Positions 30,267 to 38,819 of a stretch of DNA of 44,992 nt are shown here, piece after piece. The notes beneath the pieces were generated by a model, which saw only the letters and a program-made list of their open reading frames with translations, made no database searches and had not been told where the DNA came from. The number at the start of each line of letters is the position of its first letter. Within the stretch, counting starts at the first letter, position 1. Source of the stretch: a phage; the sequence record NC_110914.1; one strand, 5' to 3'. The position numbers were made by a program, and so were the translations under genes.

Positions 30267-32036
30267 ATGACCATTTCCACCGATACAACCTTGTTGCATG
30301 ACCCGCGACGGCAGGCATCGCTGCTTTACTGGCAGGGTTTTTCCGTGCCACAGATTGCCGAAATGCTGCAGGTCAAGCGCCCGACCGTGCAGAGCTGGAA
30401 GCAGCGTGACGGCTGGGACGGCATCGCGCCGATTTCCCGCGTTGAAAGCAGCCTTGAGGCTAGGCTGATTCAGCTCATCGCCAAGCCGCAAAAGACAGGG
30501 GGTGATTTCAAAGAGATTGACCTGCTCGGACGGCAGATTGAACGGTTGGCGCGAGTCAACCGCTACAGCCAGACCGGCAACGAAGCCGACCTTAACCCCA
30601 ACGTCGCCAACCGCAACAAAGGGGAGCGCAAAAAGCCGAAAAAGAATTTTTTCAGCGACGAGGCTATCGATAAACTAGAGGAATTATTTTTCGACCAGTC
30701 TTTCGAGTACCAGTTGCAGTGGTACCGCGCAGGACTGGAGCACCGTATTCGTGACATTCTCAAATCCCGCCAGATTGGCGCGACATTCTATTTCTCCCGC
30801 GAGGCACTGCTGCGCGCACTCAAAACCGGCCATAACCAGATATTTTTATCAGCCAGTAAAACGCAGGCTTACGTGTTCCGCGAATACATCATCCAGTTTG
30901 CGCGACTGGTCGACGTTGACCTGACTGGCGACCCGATTGTCATCGGTAACAACGGCGCAAAACTGATTTTTCTCGGTACCAATTCCAACACCGCGCAGAG
31001 CCATAACGGCGATCTGTATGTCGATGAAATATTCTGGATCCCGAATTTTCAGAAACTGCGCAAAGTCGCCTCGGGCATGGCCTCGCAAAAGCACCTGCGC
31101 TCGACCTATTTTTCGACACCTTCCACGCTGGCGCACGGCGCTTACCCCTTCTGGTCTGGCGAGCTGTTCAACAAGGGGCGCAGCCGGATTGCCGACCGCA
31201 TCGAAATCGACATCAGTCACAGCGCGCTCGCCGGTGGCCAGCTCTGCGACGATGGCCAGTGGCGGCAGATTGTCACCATTGAGGACGCCCTTGCGGGTGG
31301 CTGCACCCTGTTCGACCTCGACCAGCTCAAACGCGAAAACAGTGATGAGGACTTTAAGAACCTGTTTATGTGCGAGTTTGTCGACGATAAAGCGTCGGTA
31401 TTCCCGTTCGAGGAGCTGCAGCGCTGCATGGTCGATGTAATGGAGGAATGGGAGGACTTTGCCCCGTTCGCCGACCATCCGTTCGGCTCTCGTCCTGTCT
31501 GGATTGGCTACGACCCGTCACACACCGGCGACAGTGCCGGGTGCGTCGTGCTCGCGCCGCCGGTGGTCTCTGGTGGCAAGTTCCGCATGCTGGAGCGCCA
31601 CCAGTGGAAGGGCATGGATTTTGCAGCACAGGCAGAGGGCATCCGCAAGCTGACCGAGAAATACAACGTCGAATACATCGGCATTGACGCAACCGGCCTC
31701 GGTCTCGGCGTGTTCCAGCTGGTGCGCTCATTTTACCCGGCGGCACGCGGCATCCGTTACACACCTGAAATGAAAACCGCAATGGTACTCAAGGCGAAAG
31801 ACACCATTCGCCGTGGCTGTCTGGAGTACGACGCCGGAGCAACCGACGTCACGCAGTCGTTTATGTCCATCCGCAAAACCATGACCAGCAGCGGGCGCAG
31901 CGCCACCTATGAGGCCAGCCGCACCGAGGAAGCCAGCCACGCCGATATCGCATGGGCGACCATGCACGCCCTGTTAAACGAACCGCTTTCTGCCGGTAGC
32001 GGCATGCAGCCTAAATCTATTCTGGAGTTCAACTAA
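30267..32036 (+). CDS. P: Terminase large (ATPase) subunit gpP
   Basis: 589-aa ORF (P2 gpP about 590 aa) at the expected position. Confidence 0.9.
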   Translation: MTISTDTTLLHDPRRQASLLYWQGFSVPQIAEMLQVKRPTVQSWKQRDGWDGIAPISRVESSLEARLIQLIAKPQKTGGDFKEIDLLGRQIERLARVNRYSQTGNEADLNPNVANRNKGERKKPKKNFFSDEAIDKLEELFFDQSFEYQLQWYRAGLEHRIRDILKSRQIGATFYFSREALLRALKTGHNQIFLSASKTQAYVFREYIIQFARLVDVDLTGDPIVIGNNGAKLIFLGTNSNTAQSHNGDLYVDEIFWIPNFQKLRKVASGMASQKHLRSTYFSTPSTLAHGAYPFWSGELFNKGRSRIADRIEIDISHSALAGGQLCDDGQWRQIVTIEDALAGGCTLFDLDQLKRENSDEDFKNLFMCEFVDDKASVFPFEELQRCMVDVMEEWEDFAPFADHPFGSRPVWIGYDPSHTGDSAGCVVLAPPVVSGGKFRMLERHQWKGMDFAAQAEGIRKLTEKYNVEYIGIDATGLGLGVFQLVRSFYPAARGIRYTPEMKTAMVLKAKDTIRRGCLEYDAGATDVTQSFMSIRKTMTSSGRSATYEASRTEEASHADIAWATMHALLNEPLSAGSGMQPKSILEFN

Positions 32037-32037
32037 A

Positions 32038-33084
32038 ATGGGTAAACAAAAATCCCGTAAAGCCAACGCACAAAAGGCCAGCAAACCACAACAACTGACC
32101 GCCAGCGCACCGCCAAAAACGACAGCGTTCACCTTCGGCGAGCCGGTGCCGGTGCTCGATAAGCGCGACATTCTGGATTACGTCGAGTGCATCAGTAACG
32201 GCAAATGGTACGAGCCGCCGGTCAGCTTCTCAGGGCTGGCAAAGAGCCTGCGCTCTGCCGTGCATCACAGCTCGCCAATTTATGTTAAGCGTAACGTGCT
32301 CGCGAGCACCTACATTCCGCACCCGTTGTTATCCCGTCAGGATTTCAGCCGCTTTGCGCTCGATTATCTGGTGTTCGGTAACGCCTTTCTTGAGCAGCGC
32401 CACAGCGTCACCGGCCAGTTAATCAAACTGCTGGCCTCGCCAGCCAAATACACCCGACGCGGAGTCGACGATTCGATTTTCTGGTTTGTGGAAAACTTCA
32501 CCCAGCCGCACGAGTTCGCGCCTGATACCGTGTTTCACCTGCTGGAGCCCGACATTAATCAGGAGATTTACGGCCTGCCCGAATATCTCAGCGCGCTAAA
32601 TTCCGCCTGGCTGAATGAATCCGCGACGCTGTTCCGCCGCAAGTATTATCAGAACGGCGCGCACGCGGGTTACATCATGTATGTGACTGACCCGGCGCAG
32701 AGCGCGACCGACGTCGAATCGCTGCGCGAGGCGATGCGCAACTCAAAAGGGCTCGGCAACTTTAAGAACCTGTTTTTCTACGCTCCCGGCGGAAAACCGG
32801 ACGGCATCAAAATCGTGCCACTGAGCGAGGTCGCCACAAAGGATGACTTTTTCAACATCAAGAAGGCCAGTGCCGCCGATCTGATGGACGCGCACCGCGT
32901 ACCGTTCCAGCTCATGGGCGGCAAGCCCGAGAATATCGGTTCACTCGGTGATGTTGAGAAGGTGGCAAAGGTATTTGTGCGCAACGAGCTGTCGCCGCTA
33001 CAGGACCGGTTCAGGGAGGTAAATGACTGGCTCGGCATGGAGGTCATCAGATTCAAAGAGTACACCCTCGACAACCCAGAATAA
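32038..33084 (+). CDS. Q: Portal protein gpQ
   Basis: 348-aa ORF directly after P; P2 gpQ-like size and position. Confidence 0.9.
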   Translation: MGKQKSRKANAQKASKPQQLTASAPPKTTAFTFGEPVPVLDKRDILDYVECISNGKWYEPPVSFSGLAKSLRSAVHHSSPIYVKRNVLASTYIPHPLLSRQDFSRFALDYLVFGNAFLEQRHSVTGQLIKLLASPAKYTRRGVDDSIFWFVENFTQPHEFAPDTVFHLLEPDINQEIYGLPEYLSALNSAWLNESATLFRRKYYQNGAHAGYIMYVTDPAQSATDVESLREAMRNSKGLGNFKNLFFYAPGGKPDGIKIVPLSEVATKDDFFNIKKASAADLMDAHRVPFQLMGGKPENIGSLGDVEKVAKVFVRNELSPLQDRFREVNDWLGMEVIRFKEYTLDNPE

Positions 33085-33161: not shown

Positions 33162-34166
33162 ATGGGCGCGGAGATTAATATTTTGGAAACTGATTTTAAA
33201 ATAACCCTCGAAGGTTTCGCTACTGAGCAAGAAGCAAATAATATCGGTAATTTCACACTAGAAGCTATCCGAGCTTTAACAAAAAATCTCAATCTTGATA
33301 TCTCCAAATTAAAATGCGTGATTGTTTCCTATAACTTCAGTGAAGCTCTTCAAAAGGTAACATCCTCTTACCAACACAAATCCCCTAGTTCATTTACCAA
33401 TAGCAAACAGGGCGCAGCCGTCGGGCAGTTAGTAACAAAAATTGGCAATGATGGGCTATGTGAAGAATATACCCTTGTGCTATCGATTGATTTTTTTGTT
33501 GAGCTTTTCAATGATGGTAGCTTCTTAAAACTGAAAGAAGAAGGATACCTCGCAGTCATCCATCGCATTCACCATGAATTAGTGCACGTACATGAAAAAA
33601 ACTTACTAACATGCTTAGCCCAAAACTTTACAGTCAACGAGTATGGTAGCGCGCTTCTTATCTCAGCCACGCGTGCATGGTCTGAATATCTCGCTAATTA
33701 CATGTCTTCGGGGTCTGCCCCTCAAGAAACTATCGATTTATTTTTAGAGAATCTTGACACTGTTGTAAATGAAGTATCTGACGAGATTGAAAAACTCATC
33801 TGGGGTTATAAGTACGGTAATATTTCTCTGAATGACATGTATCTCGAAGTAAAAAAACGTATCAGGCTAATCATCAACTCTTATGCTTATGCGATGGGTT
33901 ATGTCCATTCTCTAAACATCAATATTAAAGAATACGATCCAAAGCTATCCCTTACACTATCCAACTCAAAGATAAGATATCAATTATCAGAATTAGGCAT
34001 TGCTTTTCAGAATCTTTATGGGAAGTTTAATGACCAGCACATTACAGGTTTTGGTGATTTTCGGGAGATAACAATAATCATTGATGAAATATTCAAGCAG
34101 TTTGGGCTTGTTTTAGAGTGTCCCGATTGGTCTGGCGACGGTGAACTCTACATACATGTAAATTAG
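33162..34166 (+). CDS. Hypothetical HExxH-motif protein (cargo gene between portal and cos)
   Basis: 334-aa AT-rich ORF with HRIHHELVHVHE (HExxH) and a Glu about 20 residues downstream (NEYG), suggestive of a zinc metallopeptidase fold. No recognised homologue from memory. Confidence 0.55.
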   Translation: MGAEINILETDFKITLEGFATEQEANNIGNFTLEAIRALTKNLNLDISKLKCVIVSYNFSEALQKVTSSYQHKSPSSFTNSKQGAAVGQLVTKIGNDGLCEEYTLVLSIDFFVELFNDGSFLKLKEEGYLAVIHRIHHELVHVHEKNLLTCLAQNFTVNEYGSALLISATRAWSEYLANYMSSGSAPQETIDLFLENLDTVVNEVSDEIEKLIWGYKYGNISLNDMYLEVKKRIRLIINSYAYAMGYVHSLNINIKEYDPKLSLTLSNSKIRYQLSELGIAFQNLYGKFNDQHITGFGDFREITIIIDEIFKQFGLVLECPDWSGDGELYIHVN

Positions 34167-34386
34167 TTTAATCATAGTAGAAACATAATTAGCAGTTTGA
34201 ATCCTGCCACTCCTGTAAAGCCGCTGCTCCTGGTGGCTTTTCCATGCACACCACCATCACGCATCAGATGCGTCTCACGCGCACGAACACACCCGACCAC
34301 CAACGAACCAGCAGCGACCACGACAGCGCCATCACGACGCGCTCAGAGGATAATTTTTATTATTACGCATCACTGCTGGCGCGCAA

Positions 34387-34405
34387 TGCTTTCCCCGCCA
34401 CGCCT
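34387..34405. other. Candidate cos site (19-nt cohesive end)
   Basis: Reverse complement GGCGTGGCGGGGAAAGCAT is 17/19 identical to the remembered P2 cohesive end GGCGAGGCGGGGAAAGCAC, in a GC-rich non-coding gap pointing toward Q as in P2. Confidence 0.6.
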
Positions 34406-34641
34406 GCCCGCTTTATGGGGCGGTTTTAATGCAGTTGCATGACCACTCTGGATCCCCGCCAGCTCTTGCGGCGCACGTACAAAACGGGTAACCCCGGCGC
34501 ATGCAGAACCATGCACCTGTTGCATGCACAGCTTATTTATTGATAAATCACCTTAAATTTACAAAAATTACGGACATTGATTCTTTCCAAACATGATAGC
34601 CTCTCGATAATTATCGAGCCTATTTTTGAACGGAGAAAGAT

Positions 34642-35583
34642 ATGCAAGGTGAAGTTGACGAACAGCAACCCAATGAGATTATGTCGGAGTTTGGATACTA
34701 TCCAGTAGAAGTTAACATTGAGACTGAACAATTTTCTTTGCTTACTTTACCTGGTCTCAATGAGAAAGTGGAGCGTGTTAATAATGATAAAAACGTTGTG
34801 AAAGGTTGGATATACCCTGGAAACCAAGATGTATATAACCTTAATGGTGGCATATCCACAATGCCTTATAGTCACCGAGTATTCAGTATGCCCAAAACGC
34901 ACACACTAAAATTAAAAAATACATCCTCGTTAGAAACTCTCAACTTTATTGTGTGGTGCCTTTCTTTTTTCAAGGGAATAAGATTGACAACCACTGACGC
35001 TGGTTTTTTAGATGCAACCACTATCAAGCCCACTAAGTTAACCGACTTTATTCTCGTTGGATGCTCTGAAAAAGAAGTCATAGAACTGGCTCTTAATTAT
35101 ATAAATGGCAAACATAAGGATGCGCACTCCCCCAAAAGAATTGCGGCAGTGGTGCATGCACTATTCTTATCTCAAAACCCACAATACCTTTCTTTTGAAA
35201 AATTCCAGTACCTTTACATGGCACTTGATGGGTGCTTTGCTTTGTCGTGGGCTGAGCATGACAAGGCTCCTGATAAAAAACCGCCAAATCATTACAAGCG
35301 ATTAAAGTGGATGTGCAAAATTTATGGGTTATCAATCCCCACATGGGTGTCAGGTAAAAAAAACATTTCTGGCATCCGCAATGATAATTTTCATGAGGCT
35401 ATTTTTTTTGGTCAACCGCTTGGTTTCTCAAGTGTTAACAACAGTCAATATGGTAACGATATATTGCTGCAAATGCAGGCACTGGTATGTCGCCTATTAG
35501 CGGCAATACTGTCGGTTAATGATTGCAGTTATCTCAAATCTTCGGTCAACTCACGAGATTACCATTCATTAAAAATAAATTAA
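34642..35583 (+). CDS. Hypothetical protein with R-x4-H motif (cargo gene at the P2 old/tin position)
   Basis: 313-aa AT-rich ORF with its own AT-rich upstream region and a GGAG-type RBS; contains ...GIRNDNFHEAIFF... (R-x4-H, possibly HEPN-like). No recognised homologue from memory. Confidence 0.55.
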   Translation: MQGEVDEQQPNEIMSEFGYYPVEVNIETEQFSLLTLPGLNEKVERVNNDKNVVKGWIYPGNQDVYNLNGGISTMPYSHRVFSMPKTHTLKLKNTSSLETLNFIVWCLSFFKGIRLTTTDAGFLDATTIKPTKLTDFILVGCSEKEVIELALNYINGKHKDAHSPKRIAAVVHALFLSQNPQYLSFEKFQYLYMALDGCFALSWAEHDKAPDKKPPNHYKRLKWMCKIYGLSIPTWVSGKKNISGIRNDNFHEAIFFGQPLGFSSVNNSQYGNDILLQMQALVCRLLAAILSVNDCSYLKSSVNSRDYHSLKIN

Positions 35584-35657
35584 TGCTAACGCCTCGCGGT
35601 GCTCGTTGTTCAACCCCCGCCAGTACTGAAAGCGAGTTTCAGAACCGGCGGCGTTTG

Positions 35658-35867
35658 CTATCGTCGACGTGGTGGTGGTGCGTATTGTTTCGACCTGCTG
35701 ATGCTATCCAGCTTGCCGTAATTATCCCTGACTATTTCGGCACACCCGACCAGCTCTGCGGGTGTCAAATTCTCATTGACCATTATCTGCTGCAAACGAT
35801 GAACGATGGCCATCAGTTTGATGCTTTTAGTTTTGTGTTGCGGTATTTCACCTGGTAGTCGATGCAT
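35658..35867 (-). CDS. Small hypothetical protein (weak call)
   Basis: 69-aa ORF between two ~50-bp direct repeats; protein-like composition but no supporting motif. Confidence 0.25.
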   Translation of the reverse strand: MHRLPGEIPQHKTKSIKLMAIVHRLQQIMVNENLTPAELVGCAEIVRDNYGKLDSISRSKQYAPPPRRR

Positions 35868-36066
35868 ATTATCACCCTCAATGAATTTTAATCAGTGCCG
35901 TCAAAACGCCACTATAAAACCATCTCAGGTCATGCCTCATTAATCATGGGCGTGTCATCAATAGCACATTGAGAAATTTTGAAAGGCAGGACTTAAGCCT
36001 CGTGGGCTCGTTACTCAACCCCGCCGACGCAAAAAGCTAGTTTTTGCGCCAGCACGGTTATTATGT

Positions 36067-36297
36067 TTAACGCCAGCTATCGTCTTCCCAAATCTCTTGT
36101 AATATGCTGCCTAATGTTTCTCTGTCCGCCTCTTTATCGAATCCGATAGCCTCTACACCAGTCATTGACCCTTTCTTAACGTTAACTTTTGTTGCAGGAA
36201 AAACGCATTGTACTCGATGTGTTATTTCATTTTGAAAAGCATCAATGATCTGTTGCCCTAATTTTTGCTCTTTATCCAACGTGATATTGATTCTCAT
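36067..36297 (-). CDS. DinI-like protein (C-terminal-domain equivalent of 186 Tum)
   Basis: 76-aa ORF MRINITLDKEQ...RVQCVFPATKVNVKKGS...ETLGSILQEIWEDDSWR resembling remembered DinI; LexA box upstream of the two-ORF unit. Confidence 0.75.
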   Translation of the reverse strand: MRINITLDKEQKLGQQIIDAFQNEITHRVQCVFPATKVNVKKGSMTGVEAIGFDKEADRETLGSILQEIWEDDSWR

Positions 36298-36300
36298 AAT

Positions 36301-36483
36301 CTAATCAGCCTTATAAAAATTATCATCTTCGGTTTCGTTATTTTCGCTGTTTGCTAGGTCTGCAATGAGAGTGAGCGCGAGCTTTAAGTCTGATGGCTTG
36401 CAGTTTGCAATCAGAGATACCTCGGCAATAAATTGCACACAAGCCCACTTTTGCTGCGTTCGGCTGAAATGTTCGCCAACCAT
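36301..36483 (-). CDS. Small protein upstream of and in frame with the DinI-like ORF (possible N-terminal part of a Tum-like antirepressor)
   Basis: 60-aa ORF separated from the DinI-like ORF only by an in-frame TAG; GGGAGG RBS before its ATG. Confidence 0.5.
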   Translation of the reverse strand: MVGEHFSRTQQKWACVQFIAEVSLIANCKPSDLKLALTLIADLANSENNETEDDNFYKAD

Positions 36484-36504
36484 GAAGTCCCTCCCATAGG
36501 GTTA

Positions 36505-36520
36505 CTGTATATTTATACAG
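36505..36520. promoter_or_regulatory. LexA box overlapping the promoter of the Tum-like module
   Basis: Perfect CTGTATATTTATACAG (CTGT-N8-ACAG) about 20 nt upstream of the 36483 start, overlapping a TTGCCA ... TATAAAT promoter-like element on the minus strand. Confidence 0.75.
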
Positions 36521-36596
36521 TAGCACGTATTGGCAAAAGATGGGAAGAAAAAAAACGAATAGAGCGATTGCTGTATGTGCATGATATGGATATGAA

Positions 36597-38819
36597 TTAC
36601 TCATGTATTGGTTTTGATGCTTCAGCCATCGCCGCAACACGATTAAGGATTTTCCGAGCTTTAGCTTCATGCGATGGTGCTGCGGAAAATATTTCTCCTT
36701 TGGCCGTTCCGCGTAGCCATTTACCATCAAAACAACTTTTACCACCGGCCATCAGGTGCAGGGCTTCGCCCCGGCTGATATTAATGCCGGTTGTCAGATG
36801 TATCTCATCGATAGTTTTAGCTATAGCTGCGTTTTGCTCATCCGTTCCGTGGATGAATTTTCGCCGTGCTGCTGGCTTTTGCTTCCTGAGTCGGTTGGTC
36901 AATTCTCGTCTTTCACGCCGACTCAGTGGTTTTGTTAAATCCAGTATCGGTGGATCGCTTTCGCTTCCCGTACAGTTATTGACAGAACTCCGAGGGACGG
37001 CTTTGCCGTCCTGAAGGTCAACGGCCAAATCAACAGCACGCTTCGGAACAATCTTCCACTGAGTGAGCCGGGTTAAAATCGGGCTTCCTGCACCTATGGA
37101 GGAATCGTAGACCCCCTTAATACATACCGTTTCCTCACCGTACTGATTAAGCTCGGTACGCGGTTCATACAGTGTGCGCACCTGTAAATCATCGCGACGG
37201 ACAAACGGCCCACCCTGAGCATTAACATAACCAGCCCAGTCACCAGCGTCGGCGGCATCATGGACGGCGGCAAACTCAACGCTCAGACCGTGCGCGGTTT
37301 CGGTATCAGCGAGGCGACGCAACTCACGGTAAACCGTCACCGGCGCACCACCAATAAACTGAAACTGACGGATGTGCCAGCGCGCAGCCCATGCTGAAAC
37401 GGCGGGGGCTGTCTCTTTCAGCAGCTCACCGCTTTCATCATCGGTTTCACCATCGAGAGCATAACCGTCGATATTTTTTGAAATGTATTTAGCAACATAG
37501 CCGGTTGCGCTGCCTTTCTCCGGGTCAATGGACTCCGCGTGGAAACGTGCTTTTTTGGATTTATCGCTTTTCAGTTCGTGGCGGTCTTCTTTCCATGCGT
37601 ATTTACGGACGATGGAGCGAACATATTCAACATCTTCCGGCAGCATGAACATCAGCATGTGCCAGTGTGGAGTGCCGTCGTGATGGGGCTCGGCGACACG
37701 AATACCGAAAATACGGACATCTTCCCGATGTAGTTTGGCACGGATACGCGCCCAGATACCGGTTAGATAGTTTTGCGTGTCAGCCGGGCTGGCACCGCTC
37801 CATTTGCTGTTACGGTAACCGGCTTTAGTCGTGGCGTGATATTTTGACGGCGCGGTTAGAGTGTAAAACTCACCGACATAACCGAGCTCATTACAGATGT
37901 TTTCAAACCCACGAATGCGGGTCATGAGCTCACAGCGGCGAATCGCAGGGTTAGCAACTGAGCCATCATATTTTTCAATTAGGCTGATACGGTTGCCGTC
38001 TTCGTCTTCGAGATCCAGACCTTTGAGAAATTCACGAGTGCGGCGCTTTTGTTCACGCCAGTCAGTCACGCAGTTTTTACTCGCGTAAGTGTTTTTTTTC
38101 TTACTGACGTTGCCGACTGCAATTTGCAGGTGTTCGCGCCACGTAGCTGCTACACGGCGCAAACGACCGCGCCACCACCCATCGTTAAACATTTTGGCGA
38201 TAGCCGGTGCGATTTCATCCGCACCGACATATTTTTTTTCAACCCGCTCCCAATGTGGTGGGATAACGTTGAATTGGAGGGAAATAAAGCCAGCACGAAT
38301 ATACCAGGTGTACAGCGTTTTAAGCTCGCCGAATCCGTGGTCATTAATGTTGGCAAGTTCACCACGAATGAAATTAGCAATATCAGCGGCCAACAGGTCA
38401 ACATCAGCGCGCGACATGTCCGGGAGACGGTTATATCGGGCGACCATATTAACCATGCGTGACGACAGATATTGCATTTGCTGAGTATCAAAATGACTTC
38501 CAAAAACAGCGGTTGATACCTTGCTGTTGATACCAGCGCATTCGTATTTTTTTGCGACCAGTTCAAGACGCGGCAATGCCTTTTTGCAGAAGCTGATTAA
38601 AAATGCATTGGCTCGTTGACTACCCTGATTTTGCTCCAGCACCGCAGCAGTGCGATAAACATCTAACCGCACGCAGTCGGGCTGGAGAGAAAGCACCTTT
38701 TTTGCATGCAGCAAAGCCGCGAACATACGGTCGCGGCGATGCTGTTGCTCATAAGTAAGGTATGGGCTGGAGATTGCCGACCGTGGGACGTTCCACGGAT
38801 AAGCGAATTGAACAGCCAA
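36597..38819 (-). CDS. A: Replication initiation protein gpA (rolling-circle nickase)
   Basis: 740-aa ORF (P2 gpA about 761 aa) at the expected position downstream of the early genes. Confidence 0.85.
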   Translation of the reverse strand: MAVQFAYPWNVPRSAISSPYLTYEQQHRRDRMFAALLHAKKVLSLQPDCVRLDVYRTAAVLEQNQGSQRANAFLISFCKKALPRLELVAKKYECAGINSKVSTAVFGSHFDTQQMQYLSSRMVNMVARYNRLPDMSRADVDLLAADIANFIRGELANINDHGFGELKTLYTWYIRAGFISLQFNVIPPHWERVEKKYVGADEIAPAIAKMFNDGWWRGRLRRVAATWREHLQIAVGNVSKKKNTYASKNCVTDWREQKRRTREFLKGLDLEDEDGNRISLIEKYDGSVANPAIRRCELMTRIRGFENICNELGYVGEFYTLTAPSKYHATTKAGYRNSKWSGASPADTQNYLTGIWARIRAKLHREDVRIFGIRVAEPHHDGTPHWHMLMFMLPEDVEYVRSIVRKYAWKEDRHELKSDKSKKARFHAESIDPEKGSATGYVAKYISKNIDGYALDGETDDESGELLKETAPAVSAWAARWHIRQFQFIGGAPVTVYRELRRLADTETAHGLSVEFAAVHDAADAGDWAGYVNAQGGPFVRRDDLQVRTLYEPRTELNQYGEETVCIKGVYDSSIGAGSPILTRLTQWKIVPKRAVDLAVDLQDGKAVPRSSVNNCTGSESDPPILDLTKPLSRRERRELTNRLRKQKPAARRKFIHGTDEQNAAIAKTIDEIHLTTGINISRGEALHLMAGGKSCFDGKWLRGTAKGEIFSAAPSHEAKARKILNRVAAMAEASKPIHE

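Follow-up and report, generated by a model that had tools for sequence, protein, structure and literature searches.

The sequence analyzed here, a prophage of the P2/186-like type (Peduoviridae; NC_110914.1, 44,992 nt, the whole of which is called the window below), carries two direct copies of a ~75-nt repeat, which we name E, beside its cos-proximal cargo hotspot. Our analysis identifies E as a structured non-coding border and 3' untranslated region (3'-UTR) element that fails the defining features of terminators, integron attC sites, repetitive extragenic palindromic (REP) elements, and universal single-strand origins. We consider it about an even bet (probability roughly 0.5) that E is a module that protects, processes, or insulates mRNA 3' ends and also provides a homology arm for the exchange of hotspot cargo and of a small neighboring unit; this unit contains a gene for a 69-amino-acid (69-aa) protein resembling PSP3 gp37 and W-phi gp92, called the 69-aa or gp92-like gene below. 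The 3.7 kb around the repeats is identical to sequence of E. coli strain 222 (NZ_CP020516).

Two copies of E in the window

A first-pass annotation of the window had pointed to a pair of ~50-bp direct repeats at this place, roughly 75% identical, and suggested that they could mark the recombination scar through which the hotspot acquired its cargo. We read E on the minus strand of the window, on which gpA, tum, and the 69-aa gene are encoded and which is called the sense strand below. The two copies and the sequence between them are arranged as follows.

35584-35664, minus strand: E1, the outer copy of E (nhmmer 78 bits; covariance model 95.4 bits, E-value 1e-30)
35586-35611, minus strand: conserved tail of E1, GAACAACGAGC-ACC-GCGAGGCGUUAG in the RNA sense; its final base, 35586, borders on the variable hotspot
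35612-35655, minus strand: hairpin of E1, AAC.CCGCCGGUUCUGAAA [CUCGC] UUUCAGUACUGGCGG.GUU
35658-35867, minus strand: 69-aa gene, PSP3 gp37 / W-phi gp92-like (from the list of open reading frames; phrog_11386, E-value 1.5e-47; annotated homologues in PSP3 and W-phi)
35868-35990, minus strand: spacer upstream of the 69-aa gene, ~125 nt
35991-36067, minus strand: E2, the inner copy of E (nhmmer 54 bits; covariance model 68.4 bits, E-value 4e-21)
36017-36059, minus strand: hairpin of E2, an inverted repeat

A pattern scan, a family hidden Markov model, and a covariance model all confirm two copies in direct orientation where the first-pass annotation had placed them. Both match the family profile with E-values of 1e-14 or lower (nhmmer or covariance model), a degenerate pattern made from the repeat has two matches in the 45-kb window versus none in 100 shuffles, and the best match to E1 anywhere in the window is E2. 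Pairwise alignment of the copies, the check proposed at that time, likewise lies above chance (local alignment score 25; shuffle maximum 17, n=2000). The similarity is real but lower than the figure first given, with 65% identity across an 81-column alignment and 70% (37/53) over the ~50-bp intervals originally called, and the repeats are longer, each being ~75-80 nt with an inverted repeat inside it. E1 constitutes the whole intergenic gap from the stop codon of the cargo gene for open reading frame (ORF) 313 (35581-35583, plus strand) to that of the 69-aa gene (35658-35660, minus strand), and E2 directly follows the stop codon of the DinI/TumB gene (36067-36069).

Hairpin and tail

The family consensus, 5'-AAC.CCGCCGGUGCUGAAA[CUCGC]UUUCAGUGCUGGCGG.GUU-GAACAACGAGC-nnn-GCGAGGCGUUAG-3' (minus strand), describes a hairpin of 18-20 bp, rich in G·U pairs, followed by a tail of ~28 nt. 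Across the family alignment 96.0% of the 1850 stem cells are standard pairs, and 10 of the 18 pairs have changed on both sides. None of 500 shuffles attains any of the observed pairing measures, and slid registers pair only 29-50%. The same compensation is seen within the window, where the upper stem of E2 is fully compensated relative to E1 (GCAAAAA/UUUUUGC replacing CUGAAA/UUUCAG).

The hairpin is also strand-specific. For an 80-nt stretch containing that of E1 (35586-35665), the minimum free energy (MFE) is -29.5 kcal/mol on the minus strand (z -2.4) versus -23.1 on the plus strand (z -0.7), and for a 79-nt stretch containing that of E2 (35992-36070) it is -32.6 kcal/mol (z -4.4) versus -19.4 (z -0.9). 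The family hairpin has a mean MFE of -27.6 kcal/mol in the sense orientation and -18.0 in antisense, the sense strand being more stable in 102 of 103 copies, and 231 cells are G·U on the sense strand as compared with 19 that would be G·U on the antisense strand. An independently sampled second lineage shows the same bias (-22.1 sense versus -15.7 antisense; sense more stable in 32/34). The E hairpin is under selection and is kept by compensatory change on the gpA-sense strand. Judged by these pairing measures each copy is a conserved structured element under selection, and the proposal that the repeats are a recombination scar does not hold.

The window as a whole has no match in Rfam 15 at gathering thresholds, and at permissive E-values the region 35300-36400 gives chance-level matches only (E-values above 2). 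A pseudoknot between loop and tail (CUCGC/GCGAG) was considered and set aside, as the mutual information is mostly phylogeny and several loops cannot pair; a single suggestive double change (CUCUC/GAGAG, in locus L053) was judged insufficient.

The tail is the most constant part of the element. Its columns are near-invariant both in the alignment of 103 sequences and in the second lineage, whose gpA is ~60% identical to that of the window. There the stems are very different, and compensated, while GGUUGAACAACGAGC...GCGAGGCGUUAG is almost unchanged; as this lineage was fetched by gpA homology only, the conservation of its tail is free of ascertainment bias. The tail of E2 has diverged (GAGUAACGAGC--CCACGAGGCUUAAG). 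Taken together, these data leave next to no room for the reading that the repeats are chance, or the neutral, non-functional leftover of one duplication. The copies in the window are just 65-70% identical, as such a leftover could be, but the profile matches, the hundreds of homologues with compensatory stem changes, and a tail conserved between lineages with ~60% identical proteins all speak against it, and the pattern scan, compensatory stems, cross-lineage tail, and profile matches rule out chance similarity of the copies.

Searches for a partner of the tail found no complementary site with up to three mismatches in the 45-kb prophage that could serve as a trans target, and no known motif, target, or reader. 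Several likenesses were examined and rejected. TTGAAC in the tail resembles a -35 element by eye, but no acceptable -10 follows it; a Chi reading (GCTGGTGG versus GCTGGCGG) fails in that the second lineage does not conserve it; and the strand and conservation evidence gives no support to a boxA-like sequence on the plus strand (GCTCGTTGTTCAA). In three relatives (L026, L060, and L071) a same-strand ORF starts 9-10 nt past the GAGG of the tail (…GAGGCGTTAGAAAATGGG…), and in these cases, though not generally, the tail could double as a ribosome-binding site.

Distribution of E

Scanning IMG/VR with a pattern gave more than 120 stretches, and once 8 chance matches had been removed these yielded 103 distinct copies. 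These align from AAACGCC to GCGTTAG, with unrelated flanks on both sides. Of 5426 complete E. coli genomes, 485 contain E, each at one or two sites; it is also found in 95 phage records, all of them P2-like, from Klebsiella, Escherichia, Yersinia, Salmonella, and Erwinia; in none of the 95, including that of phage 186, is it annotated. A genome search with a 17-mer gave 101 matches, mostly chance, with ~17 loci carrying a real E, and those of the ~17 with displayed record titles are from Enterobacterales. E also occurs on 18 plasmids. The possibility that it exists outside P2-like elements was considered and rejected, since the plasmid matches examined are P2-like prophages, two inspected cases being prophages integrated in the plasmid. 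One plasmid copy belongs to a complete-looking P2-like prophage (locus L307, 1-12077) in the conjugative KPC plasmid pEC316_KPC of type IncC (NZ_CP018956), where a reverse-transcriptase gene annotated 'RNA-directed DNA polymerase' lies in the hotspot beside E.

Presence in other P2-like genomes, on which the first-pass annotation had made its idea depend, was assessed with loci sampled by gpA homology alone, and E was present in 49 of 80 and in 41 of 69 of them. E is common, being carried by ~60% of P2/186-like prophages of Enterobacterales, but dispensable. The papers on P2-like hotspots consulted here (PMC9122126; PMC13586616) do not mention such an element, which may nonetheless have been described earlier.

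Stop codons, the hotspot border, and terminators

The first base of E lies close to the end of a same-strand ORF (50 codons or longer), whose stop falls between -6 and +11 nt from it, in about 100 of the 110 distinct upstream contexts. This ORF may be tumB, the gp92-like gene, orf97, or others. On the downstream side phage sequences diverge at once after ...CGTTAG. In cargo-free phages (186 and RCIP0057) E is followed by a linker of ~22 nt, then by a canonical terminator and the cos-right region, and in the window ORF313 and its upstream region stand in place of linker and terminator.

34405-34532: conserved cos-right region, homologous to 186, PSP3, and RCIP0057 up to ~34532
34533-35583, plus strand: hotspot cargo, ORF313 and its upstream region (from alignment with 186, PSP3, and RCIP0057)
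34642-35583, plus strand: ORF313, the same protein as ORF313 of P2-EC67 (AM157369); phrog_5937

Because the flanks diverge after CGTTAG and the linker and terminator are exchanged for cargo, the alignments place the gpA-side (right) border of the cos-proximal cargo hotspot at the outer end of E1, 35586; the cos-side border, where homology ends, is at ~34532. ORF313 has no Pfam or PADLOC match and recurs beside E in both P2-type and 186-type backbones with 76-100% identity; we consider it a candidate, uncharacterized defense gene. The idea that E travels with the cargo was discarded, as ORF313 adjoins E copies with differing variable triplets and stems.

An element at this position might simply be a plain, possibly bidirectional, terminator between convergent backbone and cargo genes, each module having brought its own copy. 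This would fit with E1 filling the entire gap between the convergent stops of ORF313 and the 69-aa gene, with the ordinary short hairpins that E-less relatives carry at the same place, and with the plus-strand hairpin being followed by GUUUG/GUUUAUUAAUG. A G+C-rich hairpin, as intrinsic terminators have, is also present (18-20 bp stem), but no U-run follows it on the sense strand, which continues GGGGUUGAACAACG, and the plus strand offers just GUUUG. In an intrinsic-terminator consensus scan the full E hairpin was called on neither strand, the sole call inside a copy being a 5-pair inner stem in E2 (36053-36036, minus strand), nor was the full hairpin called by a sigma-70 scan. The plus-strand hairpin is ~10 kcal/mol weaker and contains A·C mismatches, and a terminator does not need an invariant 28-nt flank. 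Phage 186 is instructive in this respect, since in its GenBank annotation the p95 transcript has its terminator, t95b, 23 nt beyond E. This t95b is a distinct hairpin with its own U-run, and E, although transcribed in 186, differs from the terminator mapped in that phage. A similar arrangement of E, linker, and t95b-like terminator is present in about one-third of contexts. We regard a plain terminator as unlikely.

Four E-less relatives (L149, L167, L180, and L194) have a different short hairpin (for example AAAGCCATGTA…TACATGGCTT) just after tumA, their last backbone gene, and the T-run of this replacement hairpin lies on the cargo-direction strand.

The strand bias could also be explained if E acted as single-stranded DNA, forming a hairpin signal on the strand that gpA-driven rolling-circle replication displaces, such as a lagging-strand priming site or a site for helicase loading by the phage B protein, in the manner of the single-strand origins of rolling-circle plasmids or of primosome assembly sites. 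The hairpin is favored on the gpA-sense strand, which also carries the nick-site motif of the origin, 0.9-1.3 kb upstream of the two E copies.

36975-36993, minus strand: ori nick-site motif, TCGGAGTTCTGTCAATAAC, inside gene A, on the same strand as the stable hairpin of E

Single-strand origins have a conserved unpaired sequence beside a variable stem, and E resembles them in this. However, E is not generally present in its replicon family, as a single-strand origin would be: reference P2 replicates well without it, and ~40% of the close relatives sampled by gpA lack it. Nor would a replication signal need to abut same-strand stop codons in ~100 of 110 contexts, and the identity of the gpA-nicked strand is taken from the strand of GenBank features. 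In our view this explanation has the same low probability as a plain terminator.

Doublets and exchange

Among 167 fetched E-bearing loci, 134 have a single copy and 33 have two, with none having more than two. The copies of a doublet are always direct and 389-432 nt apart (33/33), and all doublets with classified flanks enclose the gp92-like gene; PSP3, SEN1, and others have both copies with this same gene between them. The layouts, read from gene A towards the hotspot, are as follows.

P2 type: A-orf91-gp92-E-cargo
Midge / RCIP0057 type: A-tumAB-E-(cargo)
PSP3 type and this window: A-tumAB-E-gp92-E-cargo
186: A-tum-orf97-E-t95b-cos
L063: A-tum-orf97-E(decayed)-gp92-E

The first-pass annotation had the pair bracketing a ~400-bp segment. 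What the copies enclose is not cargo but an optional, backbone-side 69-aa gene with its spacer, the cargo gene ORF313 lying outside, between cos and E1. The spacer accompanies the 69-aa gene in PSP3-type phages and is absent from the P2 type, as matches of the PSP3/SEN1 type run through it and those of the P2 type end at 35867. The 69-aa gene itself has no Pfam or PADLOC match.

Spacer, gp92-like gene, and E together behave as an optional unit. Four relatives (L013, L058, L094, and L142) have the arrangement tumB-E-ORF313 with the same flanks and without the unit, and in L063 the same unit follows orf97, so that it can have either tumB or orf97 in front of it. The single E of L094 combines a tumB-side half of the E2 type (GGUGCCGAAACUUGC) with a tail and cargo-side flank of the E1 type, a composition that fits a homologous crossover within E. 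Internal copies of E decay. The inner copy in L063 (680-725) has kept the tail and lost the loop and 3' arm. A decayed copy is also present in L204 (8490-8578), where the hairpin is kept and the tail lost.

In its strongest form, the scar idea would make E a dedicated, attC-like site-specific recombination site bounding cassettes. Sharp borders on both sides with unrelated flanks, direct copies around an optional gene, and a strand-biased hairpin, as in attC bottom strands, would all be expected of such a site, yet we found no evidence for a dedicated site-specific mechanism of E exchange. There are never more than two copies, classified doublets occur only around the gp92-like gene, and internal copies decay; E does not occur within multi-gene cargo, a cargo-side orf97 is followed by an ordinary terminator and no E, and several cargo junctions lie 20-26 nt beyond E. 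Neither attC cores nor a likeness to the gpA nick site was found. We therefore consider a dedicated site quite improbable, more so than either a terminator or a replication signal. Recombination at the hotspot as such is nonetheless suggested by the homology break at the outer end of E1, the optional unit, and the L094 hybrid. The association proposed by the first-pass annotation is thus partly supported, in that the repeats are linked to the exchange of modules at the edge of the hotspot while looking like functional elements and not an insertion scar.

One further candidate was tested and rejected. E does not mimic the nick site of gpA (an HUH endonuclease), since comparison of the window ori (~36975-36993) with E1 was no better than with shuffles (p 0.78 and 0.22; either strand). 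A 7-mer common to E and the P2 ori, CGCCTCG, had looked suggestive, but the ori sequences of P2 and 186 are not alike at places where E is constant.

Proposed role of E

The explanation we favor, at the roughly even odds given above, is that E acts in cis as a 3'-UTR hairpin in mRNA. The hairpin would block 3' exonucleases, act as a processing site, or both, and would insulate SOS and replication transcripts from the Tum/gpA side against the convergent, lysogen-expressed cargo. E itself would not be a terminator, and some factor would read its tail sequence-specifically. The doublet would have arisen when a unit of spacer, 69-aa gene, and E was placed behind a resident E. As the final stretch of conserved backbone, E would double as a short homology arm, and exchange between E copies would move or delete the gp92 unit and swap the adjoining cargo.

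Several observations weigh against this explanation. The argument for a function at the RNA level draws on strand asymmetry and position only, and single-stranded DNA of the same strand would give an identical asymmetry. A plain stabilizer hairpin would need no invariant tail, and none of the ideas tested accounts for it. Reference P2 lacks E, as do 31 of 80 and 28 of 69 relatives sampled by gpA, so that whatever role it has is replaceable. Homologous exchange alone does not explain how the first doublet originated, and the L094 hybrid is a single case.

A more active part for E is conceivable, though we think it a little less probable than the terminator or replication-signal explanations. 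Here E would be a strand-specific signal in RNA or displaced single-stranded DNA, with a conserved host or phage factor reading the 28-nt tail; it would set the border of the P2-family defense hotspot and actively drive turnover of modules and cargo at that border, for example via pausing, nicking, or processing at one defined position. The two copies around the 69-aa gene would then be the footprint of this signal activity instead of ordinary homologous exchange.

Comparison with known systems

The closest concrete relative of the arrangement in the window is phage 186 (NC_001317; tum-t95a-orf97-[E]-t95b-cos), in which E1 is 94.5% identical to nt 30342-30413, within the unannotated stretch between orf97 and t95b. 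In 186 as in the window, E comes directly after the last gene before cos and inside the LexA-controlled p95 transcription unit. 186 has one E, followed by t95b, whereas the window has the cargo gene ORF313 in that place and a second E between tumB and the 69-aa gene.

Hairpins that stabilize or process mRNA in 3'-UTRs include REP elements near stop codons and the RNase III sites between the early genes of phage T7. By analogy, E resembles these in being long, strand-specific, and a few bases from a stop codon, and in lying either between cistrons (E2) or at the end (E1). REP elements are scattered over the host chromosome, with copies numbering in the hundreds. Unlike REP elements or bacterial interspersed mosaic elements (BIMEs), E is limited to one or two places per genome, and in the plasmids and phages examined its context is P2-like. 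It also differs from both REP elements and the T7 RNase III sites in its invariant single-stranded tail.

In the modular-evolution model of lambdoid phages, conserved linker or boundary sequences lie between modules. E is similar to such linkers of mosaic phages in that it is a short, conserved, non-coding module border with differing genes on both sides and with hybrid copies that fit internal crossovers. Unlike a neutral homology patch, it has a selected structure and a tail conserved far above the neighboring genes.

With integron attC sites E shares an imperfect palindrome, a variable but compensated stem, strand bias, location at a gene 3' end, and direct copies around an optional gene. 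When the attC cores RYYYAAC...GTTRRRY were sought in E, the 5' side gave a loose fit (GTTCAAC, ACTCAAC) and the 3' side, GTTTGCT/GTTATTA, did not fit. In contrast to attC sites, E does not form arrays (at most two copies per locus in the 167 loci) and is not found between cargo genes. The integrase of P2-like phages is a phage integrase of their own, encoded elsewhere.

Neighboring genes

The remaining features around the hotspot are listed here.

32038-33084, plus strand: portal gene Q
33162-34166, plus strand: ORF334 (phrog_11743)
34386-34404: cos 19-mer, ATGCTTTCCCCGCCACGCC
36067-36483, minus strand: SOS (Tum) module, upstream of E2 and not part of the repeat (phrog_1993)
36067-36297, minus strand: DinI-like TumB gene (Pfam DinI, E-value 1.7e-17; PSP3 tumA/tumB annotation)
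36301-36483, minus strand: TumA-like gene (PSP3 tumA/tumB annotation)
36503-36522: perfect LexA box, TACTGTATATTTATACAGTA, upstream of the tumA-like and DinI-like tumB genes
36597-38819, minus strand: replication gene A

Because of the perfect LexA box upstream, the Tum module should be under SOS control as in phage 186, and E2, the 69-aa gene, and E1, which lie downstream of it, are probably SOS-controlled as well.

ORF334 has no Pfam or PADLOC match. It follows portal gene Q and precedes cos, which separates it from the classical hotspot, and it is present only in some relatives (L078, L089, L091, L132, L160, and L165). The Q-cos interval that holds it looks like a second variable slot.

Implications

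The slot between gpA and gpQ of P2-like prophages is among the best-known reservoirs of anti-phage systems. The mechanism by which its cargo is exchanged so rapidly has been left open, with homologous, illegitimate, or other recombination proposed (PMC13586616, 2026 NAR), and is likewise treated as open elsewhere (PMC9122126). In most 186-like and many P2-like phages, the gpA-side border of this slot is a discrete, selected, structured element of 75 nt, whose terminal 28 nt are conserved far beyond the neighboring genes and which shows signs of internal crossovers. Imperfect direct repeats beside a hotspot may accordingly be functional elements of the adjacent modules and not insertion scars, which calls for caution in their interpretation. 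E can be used as an anchor to delimit hotspot cargo in genome scans, and for the biology of these phages it is a candidate cis-regulatory RNA of the SOS (Tum) operon and a candidate point of exchange.

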